A stretch of DNA of 64,000 nt. Source: Chrysemys picta bellii (lineage: Eukaryota). Shown one piece after another: positions 24,043-55,286 of the stretch. Location of the stretch: assembly GCF_011386835.1 (NCBI RefSeq), contig NC_088801.1, positions 11,656,001 to 11,720,000 on the forward strand. Reading direction: 5' to 3'. The stretch's first letter is position 1. Each line of letters starts with the position of its first letter. The notes beneath the pieces are model-generated. The model did no database searches and was not told where the DNA came from. It was given only the letters and a program-made list of their open reading frames with translations. Position numbers and translations under genes: made by a program.

Positions 24043-25850
24043 CTAGAAAGATGGGTTGGGAAGAGGAGGGGAAGAAGAAAAACATAACAAGTGATTTTAT
24101 CAATAAGAAATGCAGGATATTGAGCAACATTGTGGAAAGTTCTTGAAGCAGTAACTGTTAAACACATAAAAAACTTTGCAAGCCAAATGGCAGAACCTAT
24201 TGAAACAGAGAAACGACAGGACAAATCAAAATGTTAAACTCATACTACTACTCAGGCAGATACTTATGCAGTGAAAGTTTTCCATTAGAATGATTTGCCT
24301 GCAGCAACATATTAAACTCACCAATGAGGAATTCTGAGGCCCAGGTTCCAAATATATAGAAATTCAAAGGCAGAGCAACTACTGTACATTTAAGTATGCA
24401 GGGCCTTTAGGCCAAATTTTTCTAACGTGGTTGCCTGCAGTTTGGCTGCTACTGGAAATGGTATTTATGCCACATGTCCCATAGGAAAGGGACTTGATTT
24501 TCCAATGTGCTGAGCACCTATAGCTCCTATTGACATCAGCGGAAGCCCCTCTGTCAACTAACCCACTTTTAAAAGAAAAATGAAGGGTCCACATTTGAAA
24601 ACATGCCTTAACAGCCACTCAGATGCCTTGGTGGTGGGCACAGCACAGGACCCTAGAAAGATTAGATACCTCTCCCCCATATTATACTAAATGGATTCAG
24701 TCTATTGGTGAGCGAGCACAGACATGCATAATCGACTATAAAATGACAGTAGCCATAAGTTCATTGCAGAAGAGAACCACGTTAATTTTTTGCAAAGAAA
24801 GGAGAGGAGGTGGGTAGCTCATCGTCTGCTGCAGGTATTACTGATAGCTTCACATTTTGAGCCAGCTCTTCAGCTGGCATAAATGGTCATAGCATCATCG
24901 ACTTCAATTGAACCATTCACGTCAGCTGAGGTTGTGGCGTTTTCACTCACAGAAGCAGGGAAAAAAAACAAAAACCCAGACATGCCCCTGATTTCCTCAC
25001 AGAATTAACTGTTCAGGCAACGGTTCTTCCCACACTTCATGAGAAGCGCCACAACTTTGGGGATGCCTTTGTATGTGTCAAGTCACCCTAATGCAGCCAG
25101 CAAAGTAATATTTTCACCCTCCTTCCCTAATCCCTAACTGATAATTTAGCTCCCATTTCCTTGATCAAACATATTGTCTTTGCCTGAAACTCTTAAAATA
25201 ACTGAACGGATCAAGAAGAAATGCCTCCTGCTGGCCTCCATCTCCTACTAAGGAGAAGGAATGCTGCAATCTGCTCTATTTTATGGAAGTTGGGCTTCCT
25301 AGCAAGTTGCCAATTTAGCTGCCCAGCAAAATTTAGATGCTCTGTCTTCAGTTGCATATAACTTAGTTTATCCAGATTCCTCCAACATTTCCTCCCTGCC
25401 TTGATTCAGCTGTCCATTTCCTTTTCCCGTACCACTCGCTCTCCTACTTACAATTTTCAGCAGCACCACCCATACTCATTCCTTTGTTCTCTTCTTTCAA
25501 AACCAACCCTTTCATTTCTAATCCAATCCCACTTCACACCAGCTGGGTTTCTCTTCTGCTGGAGCCTAACATTCCGATCTGCAAGGCTTTTTTAGAACCA
25601 CAGCACTTACAGTAGTCAGAAGCCCTTTCCCTTCCATTAACTCCTAGTTACTTTTGTTAGTGACATGGCAATCCACACTCCGTCACATTAATTACCCAAT
25701 ATACAGTCCGTCATTACAGGAAATATTATGTTTCCCACTGTAGACAACATAATGAATGTGCTGGAGGAGCTTTCTATTTCCAATCTAAACATCTAAAACT
25801 TTTCCCAAGCCCAGCTTTACTTAAACAACATCAAGGTCCTTTGGTGAAAG

Positions 25851-26029
25851 TGTAACCCACACACCTCCTGGGTGTGGTACTCTGTCCCATCTAGTGGCAC
25901 TGAGACCACTTAGAGAGAGATTAATGAGTCTGCTCTACACCCTTAGCTAAGAGCCATGTGGCTTTTAGCTCATGCATTTAGCACCAGAGATTCCAGGTTC
26001 GATCCCGCCCGGGGTCTGTCGGTGTTACA
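25851..26029. mobile_element. Short solo LTR (179 bp) with tRNA-like B box
   Basis: TGTAAC...GTTACA termini, perfect 4-bp TSD AAAG, GGTTCGATCCC at 25996-26006. Confidence 0.72.
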
Positions 26030-26536
26030 AAAGCTCTTTGGAATTCTTCAGCAATGGGAGACACTATTATAAATAAAAAGAGCCACCAAATCTCTTAATA
26101 ACTTCATGGAGTTATCCTCACAAACCCCCTGTAAGGTAGGGAAATGTTGTTATCCTCATTTATGGATTTGGAACAGAGGCACAGAAGCTAAGTGATGTGC
26201 CCGGAGACACACAGGATGTTTGTGGTGGAACAGGAATCGAACCCAGGTCTCTCACAGCCCAGACTAATACTATAAGCACTGGACCGTCCATCCTCTCTCC
26301 ATATTATGTGGCCATGCATTTCATAGAGCACAAGGTCCAACAACACACAGACTGTGCATCCATTATACCGTTTATCTTTCATGGTCAAAAAGATCACCAC
26401 AGGGTCCTCAAGCTACAGGAACATTGTTTAAAAATAAACAAAAACACACCAAACAAATCTCTATCATAATTTAAAAACTAAATAGAAAAGCTCATCAAGA
26501 GATGTTCATGTAGCAGAAGGGAAACATCTTCTACAC

Positions 26537-26856
26537 CACTGGTCCCCAAGCTGTGGGGCACTCCCCACTATGGGGACACAGAGGTATGTTTGGGGGGCTG
26601 CAGCAGGGCCTGGGCCAGCCCCCATGGGGGGCAGGGAGAGAGCACCACCCACCCCACTCTGCCCCCCAACTCCACACTGGCCCCAGCTGCAGCTTTGGCT
26701 CCTGGCCAGCACCACAGCCCCGGCCCTGCTCCCAGGCCCAATCCCGGCCCCCTGCTGCAGCTCCCAACTGACTCCCGGGGAGGCGTGGACAGATTCCATT
26801 ACTGGTAAGGGGGGGGGGGGGGGGAGAATGCGACAGAAAAAGTTTGGGGACCACTG
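26537..26856. mobile_element. hAT (Charlie-type) MITE
   Basis: Ends CACTGGTCCCCAA / TTGGGGACCACTG, perfect 8-bp TSD TTCTACAC. Confidence 0.88.
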
Positions 26857-28233
26857 TTCTACACAATGTTTGACACCTAAAACATCTGGATTCTGTAACC
26901 ATGGCATTAGGACTGGTCAAAAATTTTCTGTCAAAAAATGTTTTCAATGAAAAACCTGGATTTTCTACAAAACACTTTTCTTAAAAAGTGTCTGCTTTCA
27001 TTGAAAGACCAAATGCACAGGAACTGAACGGTTCTCAGCCAAAACCAAAAGTCTGGCTGAAAAAAAAAAACTATACTTAGATTTGGAAATGCCACCAAAG
27101 TGGCTTGTGGTTATTGTATTTCAGATGACTCATGCTCCCATTCTCCTCCATGGACTGGATTTCCAACTTGGATTATATCTCCCATGATGCATCCCATCAT
27201 CTCTGAGATGAGGCTGTGGTGCATCATGGGAGATTAAGTTAAACCGGGGAGCCTTGTTTATGACAGGGTAAAGGGAGCAGGTGGCACCCAAACTATAACT
27301 ACCATGGCATTTCCAAATCTAAATATTTTCGGTTTCGGCCAAAATATTTGGTTTTCAATTTTCCCCCTTCAACAATTTTAAATATTCTGGTGTGTGTGGG
27401 GGGGTGGGGGGCAAGGTAGAAGAACCTTTTCCATCTCATTTGCAGGAACTGGCAGCTGAGGGCTTGGCTACACCAGAGATTTTTGCACCAATGCAGCTAT
27501 ACTCTAGCATAGATGATTCTGCATTGGTATAAAAGTGGCTTGAGCCACTGCAATTTATCCCAATCGGAACCTTTGAACACTAGTGCAATGCATCTGCCCC
27601 AAGGGTTTGTACCAGGGCTGCTACATCTGTGCAAAAATCCCAGTGTAGACAGGCCCTAAATTCTCCACTGACTATGAAATTAAAGTGAATGGCCTTTCTC
27701 CCAATTTTTAATACATAATAAGATGTGGAATTTAGGAAGACTCTTTATCTTCAAAATGTGTTATGATCGACTTAACTCTTTAGTCTTTATTGCCTTCCTG
27801 GGAAGAAGGTCTGATCTCCCCTGTGTGGATTAAGAAACTGAGCCACATAGGGGTTGAAGGACATGAGCAAAGCCAGAGGTAATTAGGGACAAAGTGTTAA
27901 TTAGAATTGAATTTCGATGTTAGGCCATACACAGTAGGAGATATTAGGTTTCAGGAATTTTAGATGAAATAGAATTTAAAATTATTGTTTTAGACACACA
28001 CGTTTAGGACCAAGACGACCGTCGTAAATATTCAGAAAGTAGCTGTTTGAGTGGTATGCAGAAAGGAGGTTCTTTAATAGCGACTTCATTATTTGGCCAG
28101 AATGGGCCAGATTCTAAGCTGGTGCAAATCAGCACAGATCTACTGAAGTTACTCTAGCTATGTCAATTTGCACCTGCTGAGAATCCAGTCCATAAGCGTA
28201 ATTCATCTGCCTCACCTCGCCCAAGAGGCATGC

Positions 28234-28236
<3 letters not shown>

Positions 28237-28292
<56 letters not shown>
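28237..28292. repeat. (AC)28 microsatellite
   Basis: Uninterrupted AC run. Confidence 0.97.
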
Positions 28293-28297
<5 letters not shown>

Positions 28298-28504
28298 GAA
28301 CATATAGAATTGTAGATTGTAAAGATATAGGAAAAATATCACTCCATTTCCCTGCCAGTGCAAAATGGTTCCCTACAATATTTCTTCTAGTGTATAGTCC
28401 AGTTCAGCTTCAAATGACTCGTGCAATGGGCTTCCATTACTTCTTTTGGGGGCAACAATTACACCATTTAACAGATCTCTAATGAAGAATTTTCCTGAGA
28501 TTTA

Positions 28505-28738
28505 GGCCATGTCTATATTTCCCAGCTTACAGCAGCACAGATGTGAGAGCATTCCTGTAGCCACGTTATGCCAATGGGAGAGAGCTCTCCTGTTGACATA
28601 ATAAAACCAGCTGAACGAGCGTCGCTGTGCACATGAGCGCTTATGCCAGCAACACTTACGTTGCTCAGGGTGTGTGTTTCTTTCACACCCCTGAGCTACA
28701 GAAGTTTTGCCAACATAAGTGCTAGTGTAGGCATGGCC
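28505..28738. mobile_element. PIF/Harbinger-type MITE
   Basis: GGCCATGTCTA...TAGGCATGGCC termini, TTA on both flanks. Related copies at 22198-22448 and 27460-27656 have GGCT(T)NGTCTACAC-type TIRs. Confidence 0.72.
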
Positions 28739-28811
28739 TTAGTCTACATTTTTGCCTTTATTTGTCATAGTATTCCCAACTCCAACTTGGACCACAGTAG
28801 ATCATTCCTAC

Positions 28812-29326
28812 TGTCAGGTAAGAGTTAAAATTTAGCTAACAGCTAAGACAAAGACTGCAGAACAACAGGAATGCTTCAGTAGCATTCAGTAGCAAGGACA
28901 CTGACAACTGTAAACAATTGATAAGCTTATATGGTCAATGCCTGCCCAGTAATTCAGTTCTTAGAACAGAACAAACCCTCCTTTCACAGCCCATCAGATA
29001 TCTGTAAGCACTCATCCCTACCCCCCACCCCACCTCCTTCCCCCATAAGGTAGGCATAGACGTTTGATGCAATTAGGATGACCTCTATATGTATGTACTG
29101 TTCTTATTTTAATCTTTGCTCACGGTTCTCTCTTGACTTGTAACAATGTCTGTCTCTGTATGTACAGATAAATGCAAATGAATTGATAAGAGAATGTATA
29201 TAACTGGCCACTATGGCACCATATTTTTGAAGCTGCTTGTCAGTCTTCCCGGTACCGTGAATAAACCCCGTTCAGTATTTTCTGTGCTTGCCTGATTCAT
29301 GGGGAAAATAATCTTTTTGCCTAACA
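28812..29326 (+). repeat. Proviral 5' LTR (515 bp)
   Basis: TGTCAGG...CCTAACA. Contains a TATATAA box, AATAAA near 29260 and a 10-nt internal duplication (TTCAGTAGCA). Aligns end to end with 33070-33573. Confidence 0.95.
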
Positions 29327-29330
29327 GTTT

Positions 29331-29348
29331 TGGCGCAGCGAGCAGGGT
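29331..29348 (+). promoter_or_regulatory. Primer-binding site, tRNA-Ser(UGA)
   Basis: TGGCGCAGCGAGCAGGGT, 4 nt after the 5' LTR. It is the reverse complement of ...ACCCTGCTCGCTGCG-CCA, the 3' end of vertebrate tRNA-Ser-TGA as recalled. Confidence 0.85.
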
Positions 29349-29812
29349 GTGATCGGGAATCCTCGGAGAGTTTCTCACAACCAGGGATAGAGGTGAGTAG
29401 TCTTTTACTTACCACCTCTAGTGCACACCTTGGTTTGGGACTCCCCGAGACATCCCTTCGCACTCCTTTTTTAATACAAACCACATATAGGACGCACAGA
29501 CCAGAGGACTGAACGGGACTGTGTTTGTGGCCAAGTTTTTGGAGTGCAGGGATCGCTGGAGGCGAAGGCTGCACTACCAAGTTTTTGGGGTGCAGGGATC
29601 GCAGGAGACGAAGGCTGCATCGCCAGTTACTGAGCACCAGAGTCTGTGCTGCAGTAAACGGAGTACAAGGGTGTGCTCAGTCGAGCACTGCTTAAGCGCT
29701 GCTTAAGTGGATTTTAGGAAGCTGGGATACAAAGTCGTATGAGTTGCCCCAGAATTCGTCAATGATGCCCTCTACGGGAGGGAGACTCTGATTTGATAAA
29801 AGGGAAACATGA

Positions 29813-31027
29813 GAAGGTTCAAAAGACGATCGCAAAAATGGATGGAATGAGGGTATGAGTACGATGGACCGCGTGTTGTGGTGGTCTGGTCAGACTAAAG
29901 GAAGATTAGAGAAGGGGATTGTAATAATGTATTGCGAATATGAAAGGAAACTACAAGAGTTGGAAACACTCCAAAAGGCTCTTACATTAGAGCTAAATCA
30001 AAAGGCAGATTGCAACTGCAAGCTGAGTAAGCTTGAAGCAGAAAACAAGGCTCTAAAAGCAAAACTAAAAAAAAAAAAAGCCCAACTCCTCTGCACATCG
30101 TATTGTTGCTAGCATACAACAGAAGGGTAATTTTACCGACCCTGACTCAAGCAGCGATATTGATAAAGACCAAAATGAAATTAGTTGGAAACACCTTGAG
30201 AATCAAATTCAAAAACACATGGGGGAAGCTCAAGATATTTGGCCCCCTCCTCCTCCCCCACCTTTTAACCCAGAATTAAGTGCCAGTGCTCCCTGGGCCC
30301 CTCTCCAAGTGACCATTCGGTGGTCAGGAACAGGTGAAAACAATTCCTCTCAGCACAGAGGAAATAAGGGGCTTACTGAAAGATCTCCCTGATCTAAAGC
30401 CCAAATTTGATATTCTGGAAAAGAATAAGTCAGATTGTTACCACCTACACGTTACATCCCAGGGATCTTTATATCTTAACAAAAGCTAAATGCCCTGATC
30501 TATCATGGGCCAAGATCCCTACAGAAGGGCACCGAAACGGCATTTGGGACTCTCTTAAATTTTAATCTGAAAATGATATGACCCTTGCCTGCACTGAGTT
30601 TAAGGAAGCCGTCCAAGAAGCCTTGGGGAACGGAGCCGGTAATTGGGGACTGATTGTGGGCTGCGTACAAGGCAAGACCAAGCCTGCGGCTCAATATTGA
30701 GAGAGAAAGTGGGAGATGTATTCCAGCAATGCACGCCTTGCAGACCCAAAGAAAATAGATCAGGTGTTTCTAAAAATGTTAAAGGAAGGTTTTAACTCCC
30801 AACTGCAAACAGCCCTTAATTTGGGAGTGAACCCAGGCTCTTATTATGAATCCATCTGTATGTGGGCCTCTGAATGCGCAGCCAGACAAGCTAAAAAAAT
30901 AAGGAGCAAGGCTACTTGCGTTGCCGTGGTAACAGCAGAAGACCAGGTAGCCTGTTATAATTGTGGGTGTCTCGGGCATACCCAAAAGAACTGCAGGCGC
31001 AAGGCCCAAAAGCCTAGTCAGGGACAC
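29813..31027 (+). pseudogene. Decayed retroviral gag
   Basis: N-terminal coiled coil (ERKLQELETLQKALTLELNQK...LEAENKALKAKL), proline-rich PPPPPPPFNPELSASAP, capsid-like STEEIRGLLKDLPDLKPKF, and zinc knuckle CYNCGCLGHTQKNC (CX2CX4HX4C) at 30953-30994. Several stops and frameshifts; the start boundary is approximate. Confidence 0.85.
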
Positions 31028-31029
31028 AT

Positions 31030-31421
31030 GTTTGGGCAGAAAATAAACTGTCTTGCAGTTCGATGCCTGCTCATCTTTGCCCACCCATCCAGATTACCAG
31101 TCAACTCCCTCCACCTACCAAGCAATACCCTCTCAAACCTGAGGCTGTGGATGCAGTAGGTAACATTATTCACTCTTTACTTCAGCAAAGCATACTGGTT
31201 CCTTGTGGAAGTACACCCTCTTAAGCCCAGGACCCTCCAGAAACCCCCTCGTGGATGGACGTACAGGAGGGAGATCAAGTCATGGTAAGAACATACAACC
31301 CCGGGATATTTCAGTCAAAATACTATGGCCCGCACATGGTATTGGCCCATACAGATACCTCTGTGAAAGTGCAAGGAATTCCAACATGGGTTCATAAAAC
31401 CAGAATTAAAATGTATAAATA
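31030..31421 (+). pseudogene. pol remnant: RT N-terminus joined to integrase C-terminus
   Basis: 31030-31206 reads VWAENKLSC...PPPTKQYPLKPEAVDAVGNIIHSLLQQSILVPC (RT N-terminal QYPL motif). In the same frame, 31246-31421 reads PSWMDVQEGDQVMVRTYNPGIFQSKYYGPHMVLAHTDTSVKVQGIPTWVHKTRIKMYK* (integrase GPY/F-type C-terminal domain). No protease, YxDD, RNase H or DDE core. Confidence 0.85.
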
Positions 31422-32991
31422 AATTCATTGTGTTTATATTGTATCCTGTTAGGTAACAAATGTTAACTCCCCACATTAATCCTCCTGGAAAACACACCTG
31501 ATGCAGCATCCTGGAACCTGCCCTTAATACATGTTACACAAGATGTCTGTTTCAAAGCTGGCCAGTATGTGCAACTCCCTACAGGAGGCAGCGGTGAATG
31601 GGTTTAAAAAAAGACACTTTGCTTGCCCCCAGACCGACCACCTGGGACCTATCATGGTTACAGCTCGCCTCCAAAAACATCCAGGCACCAAGGTCTCAAT
31701 CTGACTACCACAGCCCAGGAGCAGTCTTCGGCTCCCTCCCTGCATTTCACTGGATCTGGACTGTAACTGGGTATTTAGCTCCAGGGGATGTGGGCGCACA
31801 CATATAGGACCCCCAATTTTGGGATGCAATGTCATACAGTTCTTGGGTCAAAGGCCAAACCACCCAAGCCCTTAAGCATACTAACACCAGGTTATCTTAT
31901 GCTCTAACTGCAATTGATGTAGCCATAGAGGATTTTTACAAAATCATTGAGAAAACCTCACATGCTATAGTCAACCTGGCCAAGTCACAAGCTAAAGGTT
32001 GTGCTTGTGATATGCTGCCTCGTGATCTGTTTAACATTGCAAAAGAAAACATGTTAGATGTATGCCTGGGTTTTCCCCCATCCCATACCCTTTCCTCCCC
32101 CACCCTTGCCCACATTGCAGGCATTTCTACTCAACTGATAGTAGCCTCTTTAATTCCTCCAAACTCACCCTTCTCCTTTAATTTCTTTCTTGTTTACCCT
32201 TCTGTTATCCCTATCCATGTGTTTCCTCCTTCTTTCCATTTTAAGTCTATTGGATATGTAACTAACGATATGGTGTACAAAGTAGGGTTGTCCGGATACC
32301 TGGCACCATCCCCTGGTAATGCTACACTGATGACAGCCTCGGACTGTTGTAGAAAAACAAACAGTTACATTGTGTGTTCCTGTTCTACCCTTCGTCCTTT
32401 AACCTTGTCCTCTTCTGTTGTTGTGGATGTCCTTCCTTTTGCAGACGGTGAAGTTGCTGTATAAGTATCCACTACTCAGTGATGTGCATTTTATTACATG
32501 TACGGACCATTACGGTGCCAGGCAAACGCTTCCATGTGCCTGCAGATTACGGACTCATTTACCCCAGGTGATGTGCACCTCCCTGGCCGTGCGTTCACTA
32601 AAATGACAGCGGCTCGTCGGTGGTATAACAACCTATACCTGGACAATACACCGGTTTAACTGGCCAAGAAGGTACCACTAAAAGTGGTCCGGGCTGCTGC
32701 ATCTGCGTTTACCACTGTTCATAACCATGTCACCAAAGGTCACATTCCAACCAAACTATCACCCGACTGGAAGATCCTGTTCATAATGCATCCTGCAGCC
32801 CCATCTCCTGGTGGACTATTGTCCAAACAATAGCTGCTGCTGCTTCTGTATTTGTGTTGCTAACCTCTCTGGTCATGTGTGGGTACTTTAGACACAGGCT
32901 TAAAAATCTTACTTTGTTTCCTACCTTTACCCCCTTCCCCCAATTCCCCTCTGCCCCCCCTCCCCCTCCTACCTCCCTTGGGCAACCCTAA
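31410..32991 (+). pseudogene. Decayed env (about 525 codons), class I fusion-protein layout
   Basis: ORFs 31598-31807 and 31829-32464 share a frame and are separated by one TAG. Features: heptad-like helix, Cys-rich DCCRKTNSYIVCSC, hydrophobic anchor WWTIVQTIAAAASVFVLLTSLVMCGYF followed by RHRLK, and a Pro-rich tail ending at TAA 32989-32991. Confidence 0.82.
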
Positions 32992-33069
32992 AACAGATCA
33001 TGTATATCAAAGCATTTAAAGTATTGACTTTATCTCTTCTAAAAGTTTGATATGTCAACAAGAGGGCAT

Positions 33070-33573
33070 TGTCGGGCAAGAGTTAAAATTTAGCTAACAG
33101 CTAAGACAAAAACAGCAGAACAAGCAGGAATGCTTCAGTAGCAAGGACACTGACAACTGTAAACAATTGATAAGCTTATATGGTCAATGCCTGCCCAGTA
33201 ATTCAGTTCTTAGAACAGAACAAACCCTCCCTTCACAGCCCACCGGATATCTGTAAGCACTCATCCCTCCCCCCACCCCGTCTCCTTCCCCCATAAGGTA
33301 GTCATAGACGTTTGATGCAATTAGGATGGCCTCTATATGTACACACTGTTTTTATTTTAATCTTTGCTCACGGTTCTCTCTTGACTTGTAACAATGTCTG
33401 TCTCTGTATGTACAGATAAATGCAAATGAATTGATAAGACAATGTATATAACTGGCCACTATGGCACCATATTTTTGAAGCCACTTGTCAGTCTTCCCTG
33501 TACAGTGAGTAAACCCCCTTCAGTATTGTCTGTGCTTACCTGATTCTTGGGGAAAAGCATCTTTTCCCTAACA
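33070..33573 (+). repeat. Proviral 3' LTR (504 bp)
   Basis: TGTCGGG...CCTAACA. About 28 substitutions and 4 indels versus the 5' LTR (hand count). The poly(A) signal reads AGTAAA. Confidence 0.95.
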
Positions 33574-35793
33574 TTACCCAACGCTTCAGTTATGGATAGG
33601 CAGCTACAGATACCTCTTCAGTATCATTTGGCTGAGTTATACATAAATATTTTTTCAATTTCTTCCATGTGTGTTTATTTTGTACAGGATATCTGTATGT
33701 TTTTAGACATATGCATGTCTAAGAAGCTGCGGAAATTCCATACCAAAAATTAAAATACAGGCTGATCGACATGCGATTTCCCTTTGATGGGTTAAGTCAT
33801 TCCCTTCACTAGCTCTATTTTTTTGTTCTTTAATATAAGGCTTGAAAATGAAATGAAGAGAGGAAATGTTTGCAGCACTGCTCTACTGAAAGGATTTATT
33901 TCAGGTTTGGGTTTGGAATGTGTTTCAAACCGAGCCAGACCCACTCTGAAAGACATAGTCTTGCCATAAAAGTGTCAGGGATCCTTAAATGAATCACTGG
34001 TTACTGGGTTTTATGCTGATGGACCAATTCCAGAACTGCAGCAGGTTTTATATTCCTCTCCTAACCTTTCCAGAGCTCAGTAAAAACATCTGCCTTGAAT
34101 AATGCATCCAAAGCAAGGAGGAATCTATCTGCTTATCTAATGCCCTGCAGCATAGGGCTATAACCTTTATTTACTGCCTTGTCCTTTCTTTGTATGAATA
34201 TCTCCAATTCTGATGAGACCCTGGCCTTTCACTCCAGCCTCTCCCGCAAACATTAAAAAATGCTGACAACAACAAAAATTAGTGAAGATTTTTTGTATGG
34301 TACTATACAGGGTTAGAGTTTTGGGCTGTGAACGTCAACTGCTGAATCTTCCTGAAAAGTCCTGTTAATATAAACATATACTGTGTGTCAAAGCACCACG
34401 ATGAAGATCTGAGAAAGAACTCTATGCCCATGAAACTGTCACAGTTGTGTGTCTAGCTCTATGGGCACATCGCCCCTAGGAAAAACAGAACACCACTGAA
34501 GCTATGCAGTCAAGGGACAGTGTCATGTAAAATGGCTGCAACCAGGATTCTTATATGCACCCAAAGACACCTTAAGACAGCAATGTACTCTCAGTGGCTC
34601 AGCGCTCATGTCGCACTCCCACATCAGTGCGGGCTGGGCAGGCTAATGATCCAACCAGCAGACCAAATTCAGTGATGAATCCTGGTCACATGCCACCTGA
34701 GGCACGTTGCGCATATGCGAAGAAGCAGCGGCTCTTTGCTTGACTGCTCCAAATTAGGGGCATGATTTTCTAAAACATGAGAGGTGGTTTACACTCAAAA
34801 ACCAGCAGTTTGCTCTCTAAGTTATGCCACAGTCTCAATGGCAGGTCATGGTGGGCTGAAGAACCAGTGTAGGTTGTGCTTTGATGTTCAGAGTCAAATC
34901 CTGCTCTGAGATAGGCATCAGTGGCTCCAATGAGGTTAATGGTATATGCAAGAGCTGAGCACAGTCCCCTAAGAACAGCTACAACCCCAAATTCAATACA
35001 CTGCAATACATATCAGTGAGGCGTGCTGTGCTGCTGAGTTGCATGCACTTGGTGTGTAGTCACAAAGAAGATACTTGAAACAATGTCAAATATTGTAATA
35101 TCTTGCTCATTCCAATGCTGGCTGAAGTGTCTGAGGCTTGCCGTTTCAGTTAAAGTTCAAGTGTGTCACATAATGCTAATCTCGGTCACAGCAACATACA
35201 GCATGATAAGGCCAGGAAAGAGATGACTGCTAAGACGTCTGTCTTGGATTGCGAAGACCAAAGTACAGGGTACACACACACACACACAAAAACCACATCA
35301 AAATTCACATTCAGGCACATGCTGGACTCTCACCACATGTAACAGCCGCAATAAACCAAACAGACCCCCAAAAGACTGGCCTTAAGGAACTACAGGAATG
35401 TACAGTACTAGCCATTTAAAATTACTTCTGTCCTGCAGCGGATTTCATACACTGCAGCGTGAATTCCATTGAATGACACTGAGCTCCTGTAAAAAGACAA
35501 TCCTTTCCCTGCAGAACTGGAGGAATTTTAAAGGTCCAAGGTTGGAGCAATATATGGTGTTAAGTCGTGCTGTGGTAAATGCACACCACTTTTGCTCCTC
35601 ACCATTTCTTTTTGCGCACCTAAAGTAGGTGTCAAGCCCAGAGTGTATAAACTGCTCAGCTAAAGGAAGAGTCTCGATCGCTCAACCTATGTAAAATAAG
35701 AGATGCTTTGTGATTTATCTTTGCAATACTAAGAGGCATAAAAATGTTATGTACCCTACTCAGCTCTTCCTACTTCATGCTCTATTTAAACTA

Positions 35794-36195
35794 CAGTAGA
35801 ACGTCAGAGTTATGAACACCAGAGTTACCAACTGACTTGTCAACCACACACCTTCTTTGGAACCAGAAGTAAACAATCAGGCAGCAGCAGAGACAAAAAA
35901 AAAAGACATACAATACAGTACTGTGTTAAATGTACACTACTAAAAATATAAAGGGAAATTAAAAAAAAAAAAAGATTTGACAAGGTAGGGCAACTGTTTC
36001 CATGCTTGTTTCATTTATATTAAGATGGCTAAAAGCAGCATTTTTCCTCTGCATAGTAAAGTTTCAAAGCTGTATTAAGTCAATGTTCAGTTGTAAACTT
36101 TTGAAAGAACAACCATAACGTTTTGTTCAGAGTTAGGAACATTTCAGAGTTATAAACAACCTCCATTCCCGTCTTGTAACTCTGACGTTCTACTG
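35794..36195. mobile_element. Tc1/mariner (Tigger/pogo-like) MITE
   Basis: Perfect 19-bp TIR CAGTAGAACGTCAGAGTTA, flanks TA / CA (TA TSD with one change). Confidence 0.82.
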
Positions 36196-37811
36196 CATAG
36201 TTTTCTACTCCTCTATATTTATTTTTGCCTCTTTTTGGGAGGGCTGTCATTGCAACACAGTGTTAAAGCATAACAGAATATGCTGGGTGGCATTAAATCC
36301 TTTGACGCCTACGGGTTTGTTGCTCCTGCTGTTAAATACTATTCCCTCTTACTCCAGGTTCTCCATGTGGGAAATCTTTATTTTAGAAGCCAAAGGGGTT
36401 AAATGGAATAAATATGGACACACTTCAAAGAGAAAGCTCTCAGCTCGGCAGGGACTAAGAACACATGAAGTGAAACAGGGATACAGAACAAAGGTTTTCA
36501 ACATGCCCTGATGTTTTTAGGCATATGCTCACCTAGACATTACACAATCCCCTAGGGTTACCACTGCTGTTGCCTAGAATCAGCACCTCATTCTCCAGTG
36601 TACACAGTGACTTTTTAATCATTTTAAAAAAAGACTGAAGCTTGATATTGCAGCTGGTTCATCTATTATTAGTAGACAGTAGCAGTTGTAGCTATACCCT
36701 CGACTGGCTTTCAGTTTGGAGCATCACAATAGCCTGATCAAGGATACTGAATTCATAGGAGAACCATGATAAACTGCTGCTGTATACGGATACTGGGGCA
36801 AACTTAACATCTGGAATGTACACAGCAGACTGCTTATTTCTTGCCATAGTCCATGCTTTATCATCCTTCCTCTCCTTCCCTCAGAGCACTTGTTACCCTG
36901 TTCTAGATCCCGTCATATCTAATTTCTTGTCCTTTACTCCTACAAGAAAGATGCCTTAGCTAAGGAAAAAGATCCAAGAGCAACTGACCAGCCAGCGCTG
37001 CTGAGAACCCCTGTAAGCTTTCTGATCTTTCACAACAAGGCTGGTAGGTTTCTAGATTGTTTGAATATATGCCTGCATAGCTGTTAACAGAGTGTCACAC
37101 AGTGAGCAAGCCCTGTGAAAAAGGGTCATGGTCCAGCTTCTGTCCTCTGTGTAGTTTCCACTGAGAACCAATGACTTCTGGGAGTTGTGGTTCCCAAAAG
37201 GGCAGTGGGAGTTAGAGACTACAGCAAGGGATGCTGGATAAGGGGGCAAAGATATAAATAAGCTCCCTTCCCTCACAAGGAAGAGGAATCAGCCGCAGCT
37301 GCAGGGTTTCTCCCGTGAGGAGGTGGCCAAGTTCTAAAACAGAGCTACTGAGGTTCGCTCAGGAGGAGATCTAAGAGGCAGGCAGCATGGAGTCAGGAAT
37401 CCCAGTGAGGGGTGATTTGTTCACATGATAGAAGACTGCTTGGGATACCTGCCTCCAAGCATAAACAGCTGTTATACTTTGTTTTCTTGGATTCTTAAGT
37501 TACCACAAAAGGGATGGGGTTGGGCCAGAGGAATTACTAAAATTAGTAACAAGATAATATTAGTGCATTCTCTAAAATGTATTCAATAAATACATAATCC
37601 AATGCAACCCTACCCTCCCAGAGAAAAGTATGACTGTAATTAAATAGCACCGTAAAGCCTGCACATTTAATCCTTTCAATAGCAGAGTTATAGCATAAGA
37701 AAGCTAGGCAAGGCAAGCTGTAGCTCAATTAGGTAGAAACCACACGTAACAGTGATGGGCACCGTACAGATTCTAGATAGAACTAAATAGATTCTTTACT
37801 AGGTAATCTGG

Positions 37812-37966
37812 AAAAAGAAGAACAGGAGTATTGTGGCACCTTAGAGACTAACAAATTTATTAGAGCATAAGCTTATGCTCTAATAAATTTGTTAGTCTCT
37901 AAGATGCCACAATACTCCTGTTCTTCTTTTTGCGGATACAGACTAACACGGCTGTTACTCTGAAAC
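37812..37966. mobile_element. Penelope terminal-repeat fragment with inverted duplication (120-bp palindrome)
   Basis: 37812-37931 is self-complementary about AAG|CTT (37871/37872) with one mismatch. It continues into GCGGATACAGACTAACACGGCTG. The 13-bp direct repeat CTAGGTAATCTGG at 37799-37811 and 37967-37979 overlaps no arm sequence. Confidence 0.9.
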
Positions 37967-38754
37967 CTAGGTAATCTGGGCAGACAGAAGGCAGTATCTG
38001 TTCATTTTCACTTCCTATCAGTTCTGACCACTGCTTTATTTCAGCTTTCATGCCACCTGTCCATACTGATGGCAGGTCTCTTTCTTTTATCCAAGCTTCA
38101 TGTTAATTTGACCAGTTTTGCTATCTTTGGCAGTAAACAGAAGTAACACCAGAAGATTCGTCTCACACAGGACATTATTTAATGCATTATGACACTCCAC
38201 AAAATGCAAAGCAACAGTTCAGCAATCTAAAGCAGCTTGTTCAAACCAGCTGCTTTTACACTGTCCATGCCCTCCAAATCTAGGTTCTGCCCTTCAAACA
38301 GCAGGCAAACTGGCTGAAATCCATGCACACCAGTTTCCTCAGACGAGGGCAAGTCTCAAAGAGCAAACCAGGGATGTCCATCCTACTAGTTCTCTCCCTG
38401 CTTGCCTACGTCCCATTCTGAAATTAATGCTGGAGAGGGGATTTAGTATTTGGAAGAAACATAGCATTCCTCATTACAAACTGGCACAGAGAACTCATGA
38501 AGTTCACTCCAGATAAAAGACTGAACTGACGGGGACTGATATCCTAAATCAGACACACTAATAATTCTAATAAGCCAGAACTCAAAACCGCTAGTTCTCT
38601 TGGCCTTTATCATTAGTTTGCTTGAAAACCTACCATGCTGTTATAAAAATGCATCAAACCTTCATATGCCATGGCACTGACTGTAACAAAGACACCTGAT
38701 AGACATATTATTCACTGATACAGTACCTCATTTAGTCTGTTATGTACTTATAAT

Positions 38755-38986
38755 TAAGGCTACGATTTAGTCACAGAGGTCACGGATTCCATGACTTTAC
38801 CGGACCTCCATGACTTCTTCAGCTTCAGCTGTCTGCAGCTGAAGCCAGGCTTGGAGCCGTGGCTGGGGCTGGACCCGGGGCTTTAGTAAGAGTCACGGAC
38901 AGGTCTTGGGCTCCATGAATTTGTATTTGTCGCCCGTGACCTGTCCATGACTTTTACTAAAAATAACAGACATAATCTTACCCTTA
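38755..38986. mobile_element. Probable hAT MITE
   Basis: TAAGGCTACGATT...AATCTTACCCTTA ends, 8-bp flanks CTTATAAT / TTTATAAT (7/8). Confidence 0.7.
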
Positions 38987-39102
38987 TTTATAATGCACTT
39001 CTCACTGCAGTATCTATATGTGACAGATATGTCAATTCCTGCAATATCTTTGGGACATTTTATTGTATTAAATGTACATATCATTGTGGGCCAGGGATTG
39101 TA

Positions 39103-39806
39103 TGTAACTCCATGGGGAAGGGTGACCACAGGCCTCCAGGAGCTACGAACAGTAAAGAGCGATTAGGCAAATTCACACCGGTTGTGTGGTACCTCCAGAG
39201 AGGTACCACCACCTGGAAAGGCTTGCATATACTGGTTCAAACTGGATTCTCTAGAGACCCACAAACAAGAAAGGACCTTTGGATAAAAAGCCTGAGTTTA
39301 AATGTCTCCGAGTCTTCTTTTTGATCCAGCAAAGTGATAGAACCTTCTGATCAAAGGGAGGGCAGGGGGCAGTTCATTCCGGGAAACTCTGGAAGGATTT
39401 TGGCCTATGGAGGCTGCATAAGACTTTGGGTGACCTCTGGTAAGCTTTTACCACGTGTATAGGAATATCTATTGTTTTAATAGGTTTTCTCTGTAATACT
39501 TTCACCTCAAGAGTAAGTGTGCTTGCACAGAAAGAGCTGTTTGGTAACAACTGGAGGTAATTATGCTGCTTACAGCCTCTGAGGAGAAAGCAACTGAAGA
39601 TACGGGCCTGTTTAGGCAGGCTGGCTTGCTGAGAATAACACAATATAGGCAGGGCACTGTGTACCTGAAAAAAAACTCACTCAGGAGGGAGAGAAATGCA
39701 GGTCACTGCCAAAGACAGGCGATAGCTGAGAAGCTGGGAGCCTAGAGTGGGTGCCTTTGCTGGACCGTGGAGGGGAATACAGGTGCAGTTGCCCTGGACT
39801 GTCACA
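39103..39806. mobile_element. Probable LTR relic
   Basis: TGTAAC start and GTTGCCCTGGACTGTCACA end, typical of LTR termini. No TSD found. Confidence 0.4.
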
Positions 39807-40099
39807 CTAGCTACCAGCAATAACAGTTAGAAAGGAAATCATTCTTGCCTGAGGATGGAGCAGTTTCAGCACTTCTCACTCACACTATTACTATGAGATA
39901 CTGAGGGGATAAATAATAACCAAGAGTATAGAAGACCTCAGTTGCCATTCAGGGAAGGCCTTTGCAAAGAGGCATGCAGTGTATTTTGTTCTGAGCGACA
40001 TGATACATGGATTCATATGGAACTCAAAAAGTGGAGGGCACTCTGCCGAGCGCCCCCTTTACACCAGCTCCTGAGAGATTCATATCAATTGCACTACTG

Positions 40100-40430
40100 A
40101 TATGGATCATGGTATTCTTGGTGGGTTGTGCAAAAAAAAGGAGGTGACCCCGTAGGCAGCTAGGTCCTAGTCACTGAATACCTCCATGAAGACTACTAGA
40201 TCTGTGATGTAGATCTGGTACTGGACAGGAGATTTAGTACAGGGCACTGAGCAGTAGCATGTTCCTGACAGGAAAAAAGTCACTGAGTGTTGGACCACCT
40301 GAAATGTGTGTGACCTCCCACTATGAGCCCTAGGTAGAAAGCATTGCAAAGCTCTAGTCTAGAGGTAACAAGGTCAACACCCTGGAGAGGATCCAGGGAA
40401 GGAGTCCAATTTTCTTGCTAAGTGGGAGAA
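40100..40430 (-). mobile_element. Old L2/CR1-group LINE fragment
   Basis: The minus strand gives LVTSRLELCNA, resembling the FVTSRLDYCNA motif of L2-clade ORF2. Boundaries approximate. Confidence 0.55.
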
Positions 40431-42114
40431 TGTGGTTCTGGCCACTGCTGCTATTTGCAAGAATGGTTGTACAGATCAGTCAAGTAGGGCTTATACTGTG
40501 GTCCCACTTTGACAAACAAAGAGCAGATGTTCTTGATAGAGGGGGTGGATATGATAAATTGTTATGGCTCCTTCTGAAACTTTAATGCTAAAAGCATAAG
40601 TCAAGAATACTTGATCCAGTTTTTTTAGAAATTTGCTTCTGGATTTGGAATCTGACAAGCCAAGATTAAATCTGAAAAAAGTTAAGAGATGTTTGGTATC
40701 TTAGCTATGACCTTGCAATCAGAGGAATGCTATTTTTTTTTCCAAATAAGAGGCACTATACCCCTTCTAAGAAATGGTCAAGAACCCTTTGTAGCCTAGT
40801 TTAAAGCTATCATTTAATGCAAAAGCTAGGATCAAATGTAGCTCACTTGAAAGCACTAGCTATAGTGCATATGTTTCAAGGAGTGTGTCTTGGTCTTTGT
40901 GTAAACCTAGGTTTCCGTTGAAGTGCCAAATTCTGGTATTTTACATCTGGTGATGTTTAGATTTTATATTCCAAACACATGGAGCCCTCATAAATCAGTT
41001 CTCTGGGCATTACCTGTATTGAAATGCTACTCTGTGAAGACATACATCTTCACAATTGGAGAGTGCAATTATCTAGTTCTCCTCTCAAATGATCTGGAGC
41101 AGTGAGAGAAAAACACCACATCTTCAACCAGGTCTTCTAAAAAACAAAAACAAAAAAACAAAAATACACCTTTGTGGATTAAGTATCTGTGAGGCAACTC
41201 TGAACTCTACAACTCACTTTCATTCCTGGCGTTAGTGTATGGCATGTGATGGCATTGCTTTCAAAAACAACATCAGTCCACAAAACTAACTGTGTCAAAT
41301 TCCTCTCACAAGTTTAACAAACTTCAGACCAGATGTATTTTTCCTGGATTCCACTTGGTGGCAATGAAGAAAAAACCTCTAACAAACTCACCTCCTCGCT
41401 ATCTCCTGATAACTACCAGCAGGGAAGGGAAAATGTCATAAATTCTCTTTCAACTTTTAAGGCTATATGCATTTTGATCACTTCCCTCACCACACCAGCA
41501 GATGGGAAACAACCAGTCTCATGAAAATGCAACTCATAAAATTCAATGCAAGAGTAGCAAGAGCCAGTAGGAATGAGAGTCTGCATTAGACTTGGCACTG
41601 AGCTCCTATTTCCTCATTACTAATGCACACTCTGAAAACCCTTCCGGAAGTGCAAATACTGATATGCCATTTGGCGATTCTCTCTTCCTAACCCTATGTA
41701 GAAACATATAGCCTGACTTCCAGAGGTGAAGAGATATCTGCAGCTCCCACTGGCTTCAAATGAAGTTGTGGATGTTCAGCACTTCTGGCCCCTTGTGATT
41801 GCCATGTCAAGCAGGGGCACTACAGTAGAACAATATACTTTGGTAAAAGGTGGGGTCTGTATAAAAAAAACACATGACAAACCTGAATGCACAAGTCTCA
41901 GATTACTGAACCCTGGGTCTATTTCCCTGCCAGTAAACTCAAACAGAGGATTCATTTTCATGATTCTGGTTAGATGAGGAAAAATAGGAGGCTCGCCCCT
42001 ACGTATTCATGTGTGTCTGGAGTGGGTGATTCTCTCGATTTCCACTCTCCCGGTTGTAGCGTGCATCGAAGATTTCCATAGTCCTTTGGTAAAAAGAGTC
42101 CTAATATTCTAGAG

Positions 42115-42228
42115 CAGTGGTTTTCAACCTGAGGGTCTGCAGACTGTGTCTAAGATTTCTAAAGGGGTCCACACCTCCATTTGAAATTTTTTAGGGATAC
42201 ACAAATGAAAAAAAGTTGAAAATCGCTG
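42115..42228. mobile_element. hAT Charlie-type MITE
   Basis: CAGTGGTTTTCAAC...GTTGAAAATCGCTG, TSD TTCTAGAG on both sides. Confidence 0.88.
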
Positions 42229-42322
42229 TTCTAGAGGGCAGAAATGACAACCACATGGAAAAATGACTTCATCATGCTACTGTGTTTATTCCATCTTTAA
42301 CACCAGTACAGATGATCTAGAA

Positions 42323-42703
42323 CAGTCGTTCTCAACCAAGAGTACGTATACCCAGAAGTCTTCCAGGAGGTACATCAACTCATCTAGATATTTGCCTAGT
42401 TTTACAACAGGCTACATAAAAAGCACTAGCAAAGTCAGTACAGACAATGACTTGTTAATACTGCTCTATATACTATACACAGAAATACAAGTACAATATT
42501 TATATTCCAATTGATTTATTTTTTATTGTATGGTAAAAATGAGAAAGTCAGCAATTTTTCAATAACAGTGTGCTGTGACACTTGTATTTTTAGGTCTGAC
42601 TTTGTAAGCAAGTAGTTTTTAAGTGAGATGAAACTTGGGGGTATGCAAGACAAATCAGACTCCTACAAGGGGTACAGCAGTCTGGAAAGGTTGAGAGCCA
42701 CTG
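42323..42703. mobile_element. hAT Charlie-type MITE
   Basis: CAGTCGTTCTCAACC...GGTTGAGAGCCACTG, TSD ATCTAGAA on both sides. Confidence 0.88.
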
Positions 42704-43435
42704 ATCTAGAATTCTCTCTCTAAAAGGACCCCCCCCCAAAAAAAGAGAGTTTATCTTATAGAAAATTCTTTCCCAGTGATAAGAATTCTTCAGGTCCTGC
42801 TTCGTTACCTCTGCAGTGCTCCATTTGGAGGTGCTATAGAGGCTGGAGTCACACTTTGGATTCAATGATCTGATAAAGAAATGCTGGCATTATGGTACAT
42901 GTGTAATTTACAGAACATATAAGAGATCTACATATAGCAAACTAAACAGGAGACTGGGAACCAGCACCTCCCAAGTTCTCATCAGTTAGGTAAGAATGTA
43001 ACGTACACAATGGCAAAATACTCCATCTTGAAGTGCACAAATTGCTTTGGCCATGGATAAGGGGCACAAGCGAGGGAGTGGGAGACTGGAAGCCCAAAGC
43101 AGCAATAAGATGGAGAGCTCTCCGGAACTACTGAGTCTCTTTGTAGTTCTTGCGGTTTCCTTGCTCCTGGCTGGGCAAGGACTCAGGTGCTTCACAGATC
43201 GTTAGTCTGGCATTTTCTCCAAAGTCCTGACAGGCAATATGTTGGGTCTTAGGTCCTTTGTGTCGGCAGCAGGGGCTAGTGCTTGTAGAAGATAAATAGG
43301 GAGCTGTGGCTGAATCTGCACTGTCCCCACATGAGTTTTCTAACTTCACTGCCACATCTCACTCAGCCTTTTACTCCCTGCCCCAAAGAGCTTACAAATT
43401 TGGATTGTAACAAGATGGAAAAACAGACAAGTGGG

Positions 43436-43559
43436 TAGGGTGACCAGATGTCCCGATTTTATAGGGACAGTCCCGATATTTTAGGCTTTTTCTTATATAG
43501 AAGCCTATTACCCCGCACCCCCCGTCCCGATTTTTCACACTTGCTGTCTGGTCACCCTA
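43436..43559. mobile_element. hAT MITE (124 bp), same TIR family as 46648-47773
   Basis: TIR TAGGGTGACCAGA, perfect 8-bp TSD CAAGTGGG. Confidence 0.92.
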
Positions 43560-44292
43560 CAAGTGGGTGTTGGTGAGAAGTAACCATAAAACAGGGACAT
43601 TTGTAACCACGGCAGTCAAATTAGTCACAACAATAAAGCATTGCTATAGGTTGCAGAGTTTCAAAAATACTATCAGGACAAATGGTAAAAGTGCCAACTC
43701 ATCCAGCATTTATGGTATTTCCAACAGGGAAGCATTTATGATCATCTACTAAAGACATGGTCTGTTAACAGTAAAACAGACAGCAGCTGCAGATCATTTC
43801 GTCTCAATCCTACATTTTTTCCACAATTCTTTAATGGAAATGAAGTAGAGTTTCCCCAGAGGTGCCGAACGTACTGACTTTGGTATTTAGTCACCAGCTA
43901 TTTGGATAAGGCAACACTTTCCCAGGTATCATAATGTCACTGGGTCCACATGCCCTGAATCATTTCCAATGGTCCAAAGTGGAGTTCCAGAGCTAAACTG
44001 ATTGTGGATATTGTTTTGAGGTATCATAGTGCATTAAGGCTCTGATTTAGGAAAAACAGCTCTATTCAGCAAAGCACTTAAGCATGACTTCAATGGGACT
44101 TAAATACAGACCTGTATGTTTTCCTGAATCATGGCCTACATTTTTATTGAAGCTTTTGGATGTCAAAATAGACCATATAATCTTCAGGCAACACTAAAGT
44201 ATCTTCAGTGTTCACTGCTGGTGCAGGAGACGACACTATAAAGGAACACTCCAACAGTGATCACCTTTCTAGTACACTGGACATATGCACAC

Positions 44293-44294
<2 letters not shown>

Positions 44295-44374
<80 letters not shown>
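44295..44374. repeat. (AC)40 microsatellite
   Basis: Uninterrupted AC run. Confidence 0.97.
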
Positions 44375-44378
<4 letters not shown>

Positions 44379-46647
44379 GTATTTCTCTAACACTGTTCAG
44401 TTAATGGATCTTTTACCAGCACGGGTGCTTTGCTACAACTGCGGATGTTGTTTTCACAGACTGAATCAGGTGCTGCAATCCCAAGGTGGTGGGTGGCAAG
44501 AATGCTTTCTGATGGAAAGCATTAATAAATCATTCCACTGGAAGCAACATCTGTCCTTCTACTTTCCTAGCTGACCTCTATCAATAAGTATGTGAGGAGA
44601 GTTTTATATAAGCCACTCAAATAGCTCACTTGGATGATTTTATTTTAATTTTTCTCTTTTAGCATTAAGGGGTCCTGGACTTTATTCGTCTGTAAAATAT
44701 TGTGAACAGGCTGAATCCCTACCCTGTCCTCAGACCGACCTTTGGTCAACCTCCAAACTCCCCCCCTTCCTGAAGTTTGGCTTTGTTGACAACCCAAAAG
44801 CAATTACACACTATAAAGCTCAGCCAAAGCTTTCTCCCAGACTTTTGGCTGTCTCCCTCTGCTGTCTTAACTCCCTCTCCCTAGACAGGGGCGCTCACCT
44901 CCCTTATATGCCCTGTGCAGTTAATGAGCTGCACCTGCCACAATGAGACAGCAGAACCCTGCCGAGAGCTGCTGAAGTTCCAACGCCTGCAGCTAAGGTG
45001 GTTTGACAGAAGAGCTCTGCCACGCACATTGTTAGTACTTGTGACAGGGGGCACTGTCCAAGACAGTCCCTGCTCCAGAATGGTTAGTGTCTTCTGGGGT
45101 ATAAAACACATCTGATCACAGGTGCACTTCACCAAGGCGGGTAAGTGTTACTTCCATGTTATATGTGGGGGAACAGAGACCTTCAGTGACCTCCCAGGTT
45201 CACACAAAAGGTCAGCAACAGAGCTGGGGATAGAACCTAGACTCCCGTTCTCCGCATACTCAGCTCTAATCACTGAACTGTATTTCTTCGTAACCAACAG
45301 ATTTTACATGGCAATGTTCTACGTTATAGCGGAATTGCACAGTGCAGTACATGAGACAGGTGCGCTCCCTCTCCTTGTCTACTGATGGAAACAATTCAGT
45401 CCCACATCTATCTGCATTACATCAAGTTGCTGGTCCTTTCTACACTGATATATAGGCCCTGCACTTTAGTATTCACAGAAGTATCAATGTGCATGGAGCT
45501 GTACAACAGATGAGTACTGCCTAACAAATAACAGGTCCCTGCCCCAGAGCCCTTGCAGTAAAACTAAAGTGGGCTCAGAACAGGCAAACAAAAAACCCAA
45601 CACAGAATGGTCTGAACACATTAGAGCCAGACCAGCGAGATACTACACTGGAGGACATAATTAGTTTTAGTACTTTAACACAGATTCAGGGAACAGGAGG
45701 GTATTTAGAAGAACAGACCTAAAAAGTTTTCAGGGTAAGCATTGCTGCTTCAGAACAAAACCCTGTAGGACTTACTGAAGCCAAACTCCCATTGACGTCA
45801 ATGAAAGATTTTCCAGAGTCTGAAGTCTTTAAAAACCAATGTAGATATATTTTGTCAATGTAAGGCAGCTTACCTCCCATGGACCAACTGGTACTGTTAA
45901 GGTCTTTTAAACACATTGGATTTCATTAGGTGCTGAATAGTTTGAATAGTTTAAACGTCATAGGTAAAACTATGGCTGAGCTGTGTGCGCTGTTATGGCT
46001 CATTTAGGATTATACAATAAAAACATAAATTAGTTGAAAGGGAAACACTAGTGGCTGCTGAATGGATAGATATGCCCACGTAGCCTCTATTAATTGCTTC
46101 ACATACCCTATTTAACTTCTAAAATGATGCCAACTGATACTGCGCCATTTCAAGTATTCATTTCAGAGCAGCAGAAACCTGTGCCCCAGGAAGAGAGTTT
46201 TCTGAAAAGCAAGGACAGACTTTCACTGTGTTGTGAAAGCCATCAGAAAAACAGGAACAGCTCATTCATTTCCAATTCTTCAGGAGGGGCTGATTTGCTG
46301 CATTTTCCATTGCTTTTGTTCATAAATTTTTTGCAGACAGCCCCAGAAGAAAGGCCAAGACATGAGAGTAAGACACTTAATACAAGAAAAATGAAATTTG
46401 GGGAAGTTGCGATTTCTTCCTTATCTACTTTGACTTCAAAAAACAACGAAGCAGATTTTGTCATGGGCCTTCATTAAAAAAAGAACTGAGGAAGCTGAAC
46501 AAAGATTGATTTTGAGTCACTTTCTGCCCCATTTACACTTCTTGCAAGCCCATTGGACTACACATAGTGCAATTAAGAGCAAGATTGGCCTTTTATCTAT
46601 AGCAAAAGGAGAAACAGATGTACTCTATCCTTTGGGGGGGGAGGGGG

Positions 46648-55276: not shown

Positions 55277-55286
55277 CCATATATGG
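55277..55286. promoter_or_regulatory. Consensus CArG box (possible SRF site)
   Basis: CCATATATGG. Other CC(A/T)6GG matches at 6718, 12024, 23508, 34749 and 58080. Motif match only; function not shown. Confidence 0.3.

Follow-up and report, generated by a model that had tools for sequence, protein, structure and literature searches.

A defective multi-copy endogenous retrovirus of turtles with a predicted F-type envelope and a polymerase probably from the base of class I

Results

The provirus and its host intron

The window, i.e., the whole 64,000-nucleotide stretch of the Chrysemys picta bellii genome analyzed here, contains a broken provirus at positions 28812-33573, with the order LTR, tRNA-Ser primer site, gag, pol stubs, broken env, and LTR (Table 1). 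While the target-site duplication of the window copy carries a mismatch, exact 4-bp duplications were found in both of the two sister proviruses with both ends readable. Exons of a MYLK-like gene, located by a motif scan, flank the provirus on both sides on the minus strand, with the ATG exon near 63701 and the next Ig exon near 24040, so the provirus lies antisense within the intron. Thus, the LTR pair and the exons on either side bear out the intronic provirus proposed in an earlier, sequence-only reading of this DNA. The junction between the 3' LTR and the flank was spanned by single contigs in three of four runs, which carry three organism labels and of which one is about 1% divergent; in the fourth run, of which just about 60% was read, the junction was uncovered.

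The LTR pair differs by a K2P distance of 0.058 over 503 aligned bases. With assumed rates of 2.2, 1.0, and 0.5 × 10−9 per site per year this corresponds to 13, 29, or 58 million years, respectively. The window copy would accordingly have integrated some 13-58 million years ago, depending on the rate, and it most likely has no function.

Three further features of the window were recorded. A GC-rich (67%) repeated element with several long spurious open frames lies in the same intron at 46577-47791, and positions 37806-37937 form a 132-bp near-perfect palindrome, 95% complementary and without spacer. The fragments at 17548-18535 and 50236-50785 are presumably of DIRS-type and Penelope/GIY-YIG-type retroelements.

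Table 1. Features of the provirus and of the surrounding MYLK-like gene (window coordinates).
Feature	Position	Strand	Remarks
Target-site duplication, left copy	28808..28811	+	CTAC, 4 bp
5' LTR (TG...CA)	28812..29326	+	direct repeat of 33070-33573
Primer binding site, tRNA-Ser(TGA)	29331..29348	+	complement is the 3' end of a genomic tRNA-Ser(tga) gene
Broken gag	29840..31026	+	coiled-coil start, capsid region, one CCHC zinc knuckle (30953-30994)
RT start, about 35 residues, and preceding linker	31057..31224	+	best match P0016, E 1e-14, rank 1 of 110 scored
Integrase C-terminal (GPY/F-type) domain	31225..31422	+	Pfam MLVIN_C, E 6e-8, 32.6 bits, cut-off 29.2
Env surface subunit, N-terminal part	31440..31819	+	frameshifted; includes the cleavage site supposed in the sequence-only reading
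Env internal deletion junction	31819..31825	+	end of surface subunit, basic cleavage site and fusion peptide absent
F1-like transmembrane subunit remnant	31825..32990	+	long helix, beta-rich Cys domains, second helix, anchor; stops, frameshifts
Membrane anchor of env	32818-32874	+	hydropathy 2.14
Decayed polypurine tract	33059..33069	+	abuts 3' LTR start; sisters purine-richer
3' LTR (TG...CA)	33070..33573	+	paired with 5' LTR
Target-site duplication, right copy	33574-33577		TTAC, one mismatch to left copy CTAC
Host intron of MYLK (myosin light chain kinase)-like gene	24046..63540	-	about 39.5 kb, boundaries approximate
MYLK-like Ig-domain exons	near 63701-63540, 24040-23870, 15277, 11087, 1411	-	motif scan
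23ISL linker exon, PF16620 (MYLK-specific)	3744-4436	-	E 4e-31

Remnants of gag and pol

At its start gag encodes only a short coiled coil, the one feature noted with regard to the optional smc-like gene of lokiretroviruses. The zinc knuckle matched zf-CCHC with an E-value of 0.014, below the Pfam cut-off, and no Gag_p30 match was obtained with Pfam in the family. The window gag resembles the Gag of another turtle element, L080 (29% identity over 216 amino acids, E 4e-25). L080 (positions 1-9820; also L095, L096, and further places) represents another ERV family, of very young age. The gag, pol, and env frames are open, gag and pol being separated by an in-frame stop; the LTRs are 99.9% alike, and the primer site is presumably of the Pro type.

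The sister copies hold about 740 extra bases at 31026/31029, which encode a second knuckle and the protease. The RT core, RNase H, and integrase core are deleted from the window copy; the protease is kept in sisters, and in some of them small parts of RNase H or integrase survive as well. In the window and in the 19 loci checked, no RT core is linked to the element. Likewise, no RT-bearing member of the window family was found when the genome was searched with the RT core of the related pol P0016, which found the L080 family first (56%), nor was there one among four further RT matches and two LTR-flank regions.

The envelope and its internal deletion

All the envelope peptides quoted in the sequence-only reading are present on the plus strand, in the order given there, and they spread over three frames. 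The N-terminal segment and SRHQG-LNLTTTA share one frame (about 31476-31718), while GAVFGSL, the long helix, DVCLGFPP, FNFFLVYP, FHFKSIGYV, and the Cys cluster lie in a second frame (31718-32656) with three stops, and the transmembrane helix is in the third.

Comparison with nine sister copies revealed an internal deletion at 31819/31825. Three sisters, the longest, exceed the window copy by 663-683 nt net, two retain part of the stretch, and four share the junction of the window. In seven sisters (L027, L031, L083, L084, L086, L091, and L094), a basic site of the R-Q-K type precedes a hydrophobic peptide rich in Gly, with point changes in this region in some of them. The true basic site and fusion peptide are thus located in the stretch that is missing here and kept in the longer sisters, and SRHQG/GAVFGSL, taken earlier for their decayed remains, belongs to the surface subunit upstream of them. 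The distance of about 370 codons that had been measured from it to the membrane anchor is near the right value, which is about 355-370 in the sisters and in a fish homologue, but only by coincidence. The Env ectodomain is about 360 amino acids long, in contrast to the short TM ectodomain of gamma-type Envs, which also carry an immunosuppressive domain and a CX6CC motif. The surface subunit of the longer sisters (L027:9091-9468) looks Ig-domain-like by eye, and Pfam gave no support for this. P0002, a gene model of the loggerhead turtle, seems to cross the same deletion junction as the window copy. If it truly does, the deleted sub-lineage would be old; alternatively, the model may reflect a splicing artefact.

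Predicted host proteins of sea turtles contain pieces of env, and the insertion is common to related turtles, as would be expected of a gene co-opted by the host. On the other hand, env is broken by stops and frameshifts, has lost its fusion peptide, and nowhere exceeds 218 codons without a stop, whereas the database proteins are unnamed gene models, one of which seems to begin in leader sequence. Co-option is therefore hardly credible, and we regard the locus as a dead fossil with no sign of function.

The env DNA matched at least 24 distinct places in the genome, including the window, at 79-92% identity (from 40 matches), and the LTR search gave 112 candidates, of which 40 were scored.

Envelope homologues

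The window env frame alone matched no Pfam family, no fusion protein of the PDB, and not the wider Env profile described below. Nine database Envs match the frame directly at E-values of at most 2e-12, the best being P0178 (3e-32) and P0159 (1e-30), and the named homologues come from cyprinids, a catshark, and a toad. Matches with named database proteins indicate a turtle as host, and one protein from Chrysemys picta bellii has 99% identity with another ERV Env of this genome. With P0159, an Env of a fish ERV, the window env shares 28% identity over 292 amino acids (E 7e-30). When a profile built from eight turtle Env sequences was searched against 1.84 billion proteins, it found 194 proteins, of which 150 are listed. 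An eight-sequence profile found no F protein.

None of the viral envelope families in Pfam was hit by any of the 65 longer homologues scanned or by the 11 close homologues. The close Env subfamily was linked to a wider set of ERV Envs with a probability of 97.9% and an E-value of 5e-13 over 374 columns. A joint profile of 84 rows found the F protein of hPIV3 with an E-value of 8e-6, F proteins occupying its first six rows; the wider set alone found it at E 0.002, and the profile of the close subfamily alone found no F protein.

Predicted fold of the envelope

The structure of P0159 was modeled from an alignment with 84 relatives, which is dominated by the distant group. The model has a mean pLDDT of 62.9 and a pTM of 0.48, with pLDDT mostly between 70 and 90 over residues 131-560; folding a related Env from its sequence alone gave no usable model (pLDDT 35.5). 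In a Foldseek search against the PDB, all of the 40 best rows were paramyxo- or pneumovirus F proteins, with a top E-value of 5e-8 and low TM-scores of 0.14-0.27. With VIA, the first eight rows had Z-scores of 8.1-9.0, modestly higher than its stated background of 7-8 (e.g., 1G5G with Z 8.8, rmsd 6.4 Å, and 286 aligned residues), and foamy Env had a Z-score of 6.7. In the predicted model, residues 138-495 align to F.

In BFVD the best match of the model was the glycoprotein of a fish filovirus (Wenling thamnaconus) with an E-value of 3e-10, and the matches also included the Envs of WEHV1 (E 2e-9) and WDSV (E 8e-7), baculovirus F, and lispivirus glycoproteins. By the same modeling, the glycoprotein of the Wenling thamnaconus filovirus and the Env of the walleye epsilonretroviruses would be F-type and not gamma-type.

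The Env of the window family is thus predicted to be a class Ib (paramyxovirus F-type) fusogen, and its homologue P0159 is predicted to have the core beta-sheet and helical bundle common to F. The proposal of an F-protein-like Env made from the sequence is supported by the profiles and predicted fold of close homologues, although PF00523, one of the Pfam families that it named for a profile check, gave no direct hit. The absence of a gamma-type Env was also supported, as neither TLV_coat nor any other gamma-type family was hit by the window pieces or the homologues.

At least four more turtle ERV families (L101, L103-L107), placed on different RT branches, have Envs of the same layout, with long ectodomains and no Pfam annotation. 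L101 is epsilon-like, L103, L105, and L107 are class III-like, and the LTRs of L104 are identical. Canonical-type RT motifs are carried by several of the further turtle families with F-like Env.

Relatives of the polymerase

P0016, a pol whose 90% cluster holds an eel protein, ranked first for the protease-RT frame of a sister copy (E 5e-45, 45% identity), for the RT stub and integrase end of the window, and for an RNase H remnant that two sisters retain (E 1e-17). This remnant has 62 residues and its best matches are class I-side pols (E 1e-17), while the loki-like rows, which are cut short, gave no score. The surviving C-terminal part of the integrase matches MLVIN_C, and the loki-like proteins compared have no such part. 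In lokiretroviruses, RNase H groups with foamy viruses and the integrase is closest to CGIN1. In a tree of the protease and RT start (22 rows, a further nine selected rows being skipped for want of anchors) P0016 is sister to the window family with a support of 94/93. No relative was found when viral and metagenome contigs were scanned with the related pols.

As the RT core of the family itself was not found, its RT placement rests on P0016 as a proxy of about 45% identity. Sufficient RT was present in 122 sequences; after removal of 29 near-identical bird rows, the trees were computed with 47 or 45 rows. The loki-like rows are three database proteins, two recognized by motif against a published alignment and one by tree position. 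The class I rows were recognized by Gag_p30 and host labels, with no named gamma or epsilon reference in the tree. The RTs of P0016 and L080 fell inside the canonical retroviruses with supports of 100/98 in the first tree and 100/99 in the tree that included snakehead retrovirus (SnRV). The proxy adjoins, from outside, a 96/95 branch of gamma- and epsilon-like rows, and shares with class I-like rows a branch of 90/95, a support short of the strict threshold. Judged from these sequence comparisons, the pol is likely canonical, branching off at the base of class I on the gamma/epsilon side, and not lokiretroviral.

A degraded family (L079, L098, L102, and L111) was also observed. Its pol is 46-52% identical to the proxy over the RT, and its decayed env weakly resembles that of L080. 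L080 itself groups with P0016 by its RT, and its Env belongs to the same F-type set.

Discussion

Lokiretroviruses

Lokiretroviruses are defined by the position of their RT, and an F-like Env and highly degraded turtle copies, including some in the painted turtle, are reported (Wang and Han 2021, PMC7947760). The sequence-only reading took the window element for a lokiretrovirus-like one on account of its Env, and the Env layout does resemble the published loki Env by eye and is F-like by predicted fold. The same reading named the RT placement of fuller relatives as its refuting test, and these relatives fall inside the canonical retroviruses, on the class I side; both RT trees reject a grouping of the proxy with the loki-like RTs (p-AU 0.0003 and 0.004). 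In the short protease/RT-start alignment such a grouping of the family is not rejected (p-AU 0.09). Still, the loki-like proteins rank 40th or lower against the protease-RT frame and the RT stub of the family, and the RNase H remnant matches class I-side pols, not the truncated loki-like rows. In addition, all nine loki RT starts visible in the published supplement read QYKIP or KYRIP with PFG in the core, while the window stub reads QYP and the proxy carries the canonical PQG. That the element is a lokiretrovirus (lokiortervirus) is therefore very improbable, and the assignment is already largely refuted.

Moreover, an F-like Env is also found in foamy viruses, in walleye epsilonretrovirus, and in several turtle ERV families, so it is not diagnostic of lokiretroviruses; its occurrence in a class I-stem lineage and in at least four further turtle ERV families weakens its use as a marker for them. 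An element with dual RNase H beside L029 was separately tried as a loki-like candidate and rejected, as its intact relatives have PQG and fall in the canonical retroviruses.

Snakehead retrovirus

The window family could instead belong to the SnRV-like clade (clade Huo), with the same kind of Env. Reports of SnRV-clade ERVs from reptiles (PMC12193657) would agree with this, as would a 13-residue RT motif common to the proxy and SnRV, whose genome was the only match to it in the viral contigs. The SnRV sequence used is a 10,688-base viral contig from that motif scan, with an RT that matches snakehead retrovirus. By eye its Env shows the same layout, and in a pairwise comparison it weakly matches the surface-subunit end of a sister copy (E 8e-6), but the Env profile of the family did not match it. 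The family gag found no match in the pol-frame and env proteins of SnRV, the sole two searched. In the RT tree the 90/95 branch comprising the proxy and class I excludes SnRV, whose RT is 43-44% identical to the proxy and L080 compared with 47-49% to other rows. A clade of the proxy with SnRV was not recovered, nor was it rejected (p-AU 0.07). On the whole, we find membership in this clade improbable. An SnRV-like reading, from the identity of L080 by eye over the RT start (70/131 to SnRV and about 58 to Loki-Sri), had been considered as well and failed once SnRV was in the tree.

Recombination

Exchanges of Env are common among retroviruses. The Env of walleye epsilonretrovirus has been argued to be a later acquisition (PMC9967133), and F-type glycoproteins occur in many unrelated viruses. 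Such a swap could have joined a class I-type gag-pol to an F-type env from a loki-like or another lineage, in which case the envelope would be uninformative on ancestry. The neighbors of Env and pol are concordant, however, as no other turtle family is as close as L080 in either gag-pol or env, and a weak env match (L098, E 5e-5) also comes from the second related pol family. F-type Envs are also found on several separate RT branches of the same genome, and any swap must have been ancient. A recombinant origin thus seems unlikely, and at the level of this locus it is compatible with the explanation that we prefer.

Origin and significance

Taken together, it is quite probable that the window contains a copy of a defective, multi-copy turtle ERV with a predicted class Ib Env and a pol that likely stems from the base of class I and not from lokiretroviruses. 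The family, of class I stem and with a class Ib (F-type) Env, apparently is undescribed and has spread as deleted copies, although it may already carry a repeat name. We found no description of an F-type Env in class I-stem or turtle ERVs in a literature search that was thin on subscription journals.

In a possible history of the family, a virus related to retroviruses of fish, sharks, and amphibians would have entered the germ line of turtles. Reverse transcription would have been primed by tRNA-Ser, and integration would have produced the 4-bp duplications. The ancestral Env would have been cleaved at a basic site of the furin type. F2 would have had its counterpart in the final strand and helix of the surface subunit, and F1 in the long transmembrane subunit, with fusion peptide, long helix, beta-rich Cys domains, second helix, and anchor. 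The protein presumably refolded to a six-helix bundle, as in paramyxoviruses and foamy viruses. Copies without the RT core, and a sub-lineage that is also without the fusion peptide, were probably copied in trans by helper enzymes, as suggested by the deletion junctions that they share.

These results suggest that the F-type entry protein is more widespread in retroviruses than described. Since the turtle genome carries it on several RT branches, and loki-, foamy, SnRV, and walleye viruses have it as well, we tentatively consider, at somewhat less than even odds, that the F-type (class Ib) Env is ancestral to retroviruses and that gamma- and beta-type Envs are later replacements. If so, the F-type Env would persist on the loki, foamy, SnRV, class III-like, epsilon-like, and class I-stem branches, and the 194 unannotated proteins would be a large family without a Pfam entry that documents it. 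The origin of retroviral Env thereby becomes testable by comparing env and pol trees. In earlier publications, foamy Env is described as F-like and class Ib is named (PMC11468914), no similarity between loki and canonical retroviral Env is found and independent origins are preferred (PMC7947760, PMC9040795), and epsilonretrovirus Env is treated as unclassified (PMC9967133, bioRxiv 10.1101/2021.11.05.467493). Invertebrate F-type env is covered and vertebrate ERVs are deferred in another study (bioRxiv 10.1101/2023.10.26.564294).

Comparison with known retroviruses

The family was compared with known systems using, besides the above, PMC6001957, PMC4977317, PMC12583693, PMC13709493, bioRxiv 10.1101/2023.10.17.562709, and bioRxiv 10.1101/2024.03.25.586437. 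With lokiretroviruses (PMC7947760) it shares gag, pol, and env between LTRs, aquatic vertebrate hosts, and an Env whose long F-like ectodomain comes with a basic cleavage site, a fusion peptide, and a coiled coil. It differs from them in the RT, with QYKIP/PFG there as against the canonical QYP/PQG here and a proxy inside the canonical retroviruses, and apparently in its RNase H remnant, which does not match the truncated loki-like rows.

With SnRV and clade Huo the family has in common the RT motif, the Env layout by eye, and fish-associated relatives, whereas the RT tree separates the two and the similarity of the Envs is weak. SnRV is also set apart as a complex virus, having accessory frames and an Env with a long tail (PMC12193657).

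Foamy Env and the F proteins of paramyxo- and pneumoviruses (class Ib) share with the Env of the family the predicted core fold and a receptor-binding part placed before the F2-like strand and helix (PMC11468914), but sequence identity is just 7-14%. The related RT of L080 scored higher with MLV (258 bits) than with foamy RT (204 bits), in comparisons made outside the trees, which were built without foamy RT.

ERV4 of crocodilians and turtles is, like the present family, a non-mammalian ERV with env that occurs in the painted turtle, but according to the table in PMC4299795 it has no zinc fingers, no GPY/F motif, and 5-bp target-site duplications, while the window family has both motifs and 4-bp duplications. 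These duplications, the CCHC knuckles, and the GPY/F-type end of the integrase exclude ERV4 and fit class I ERVs (ERV1), with which the same table lists them. Class I is also adjoined by the proxy RT, and the Env models of WEHV1 and WDSV match the fold. The family differs from class I ERVs in that it has no TLV_coat-type Env, no Gag_p30 match, and a tRNA-Ser primer, and in that the proxy lies outside the 96/95 branch of gamma- and epsilon-like rows.
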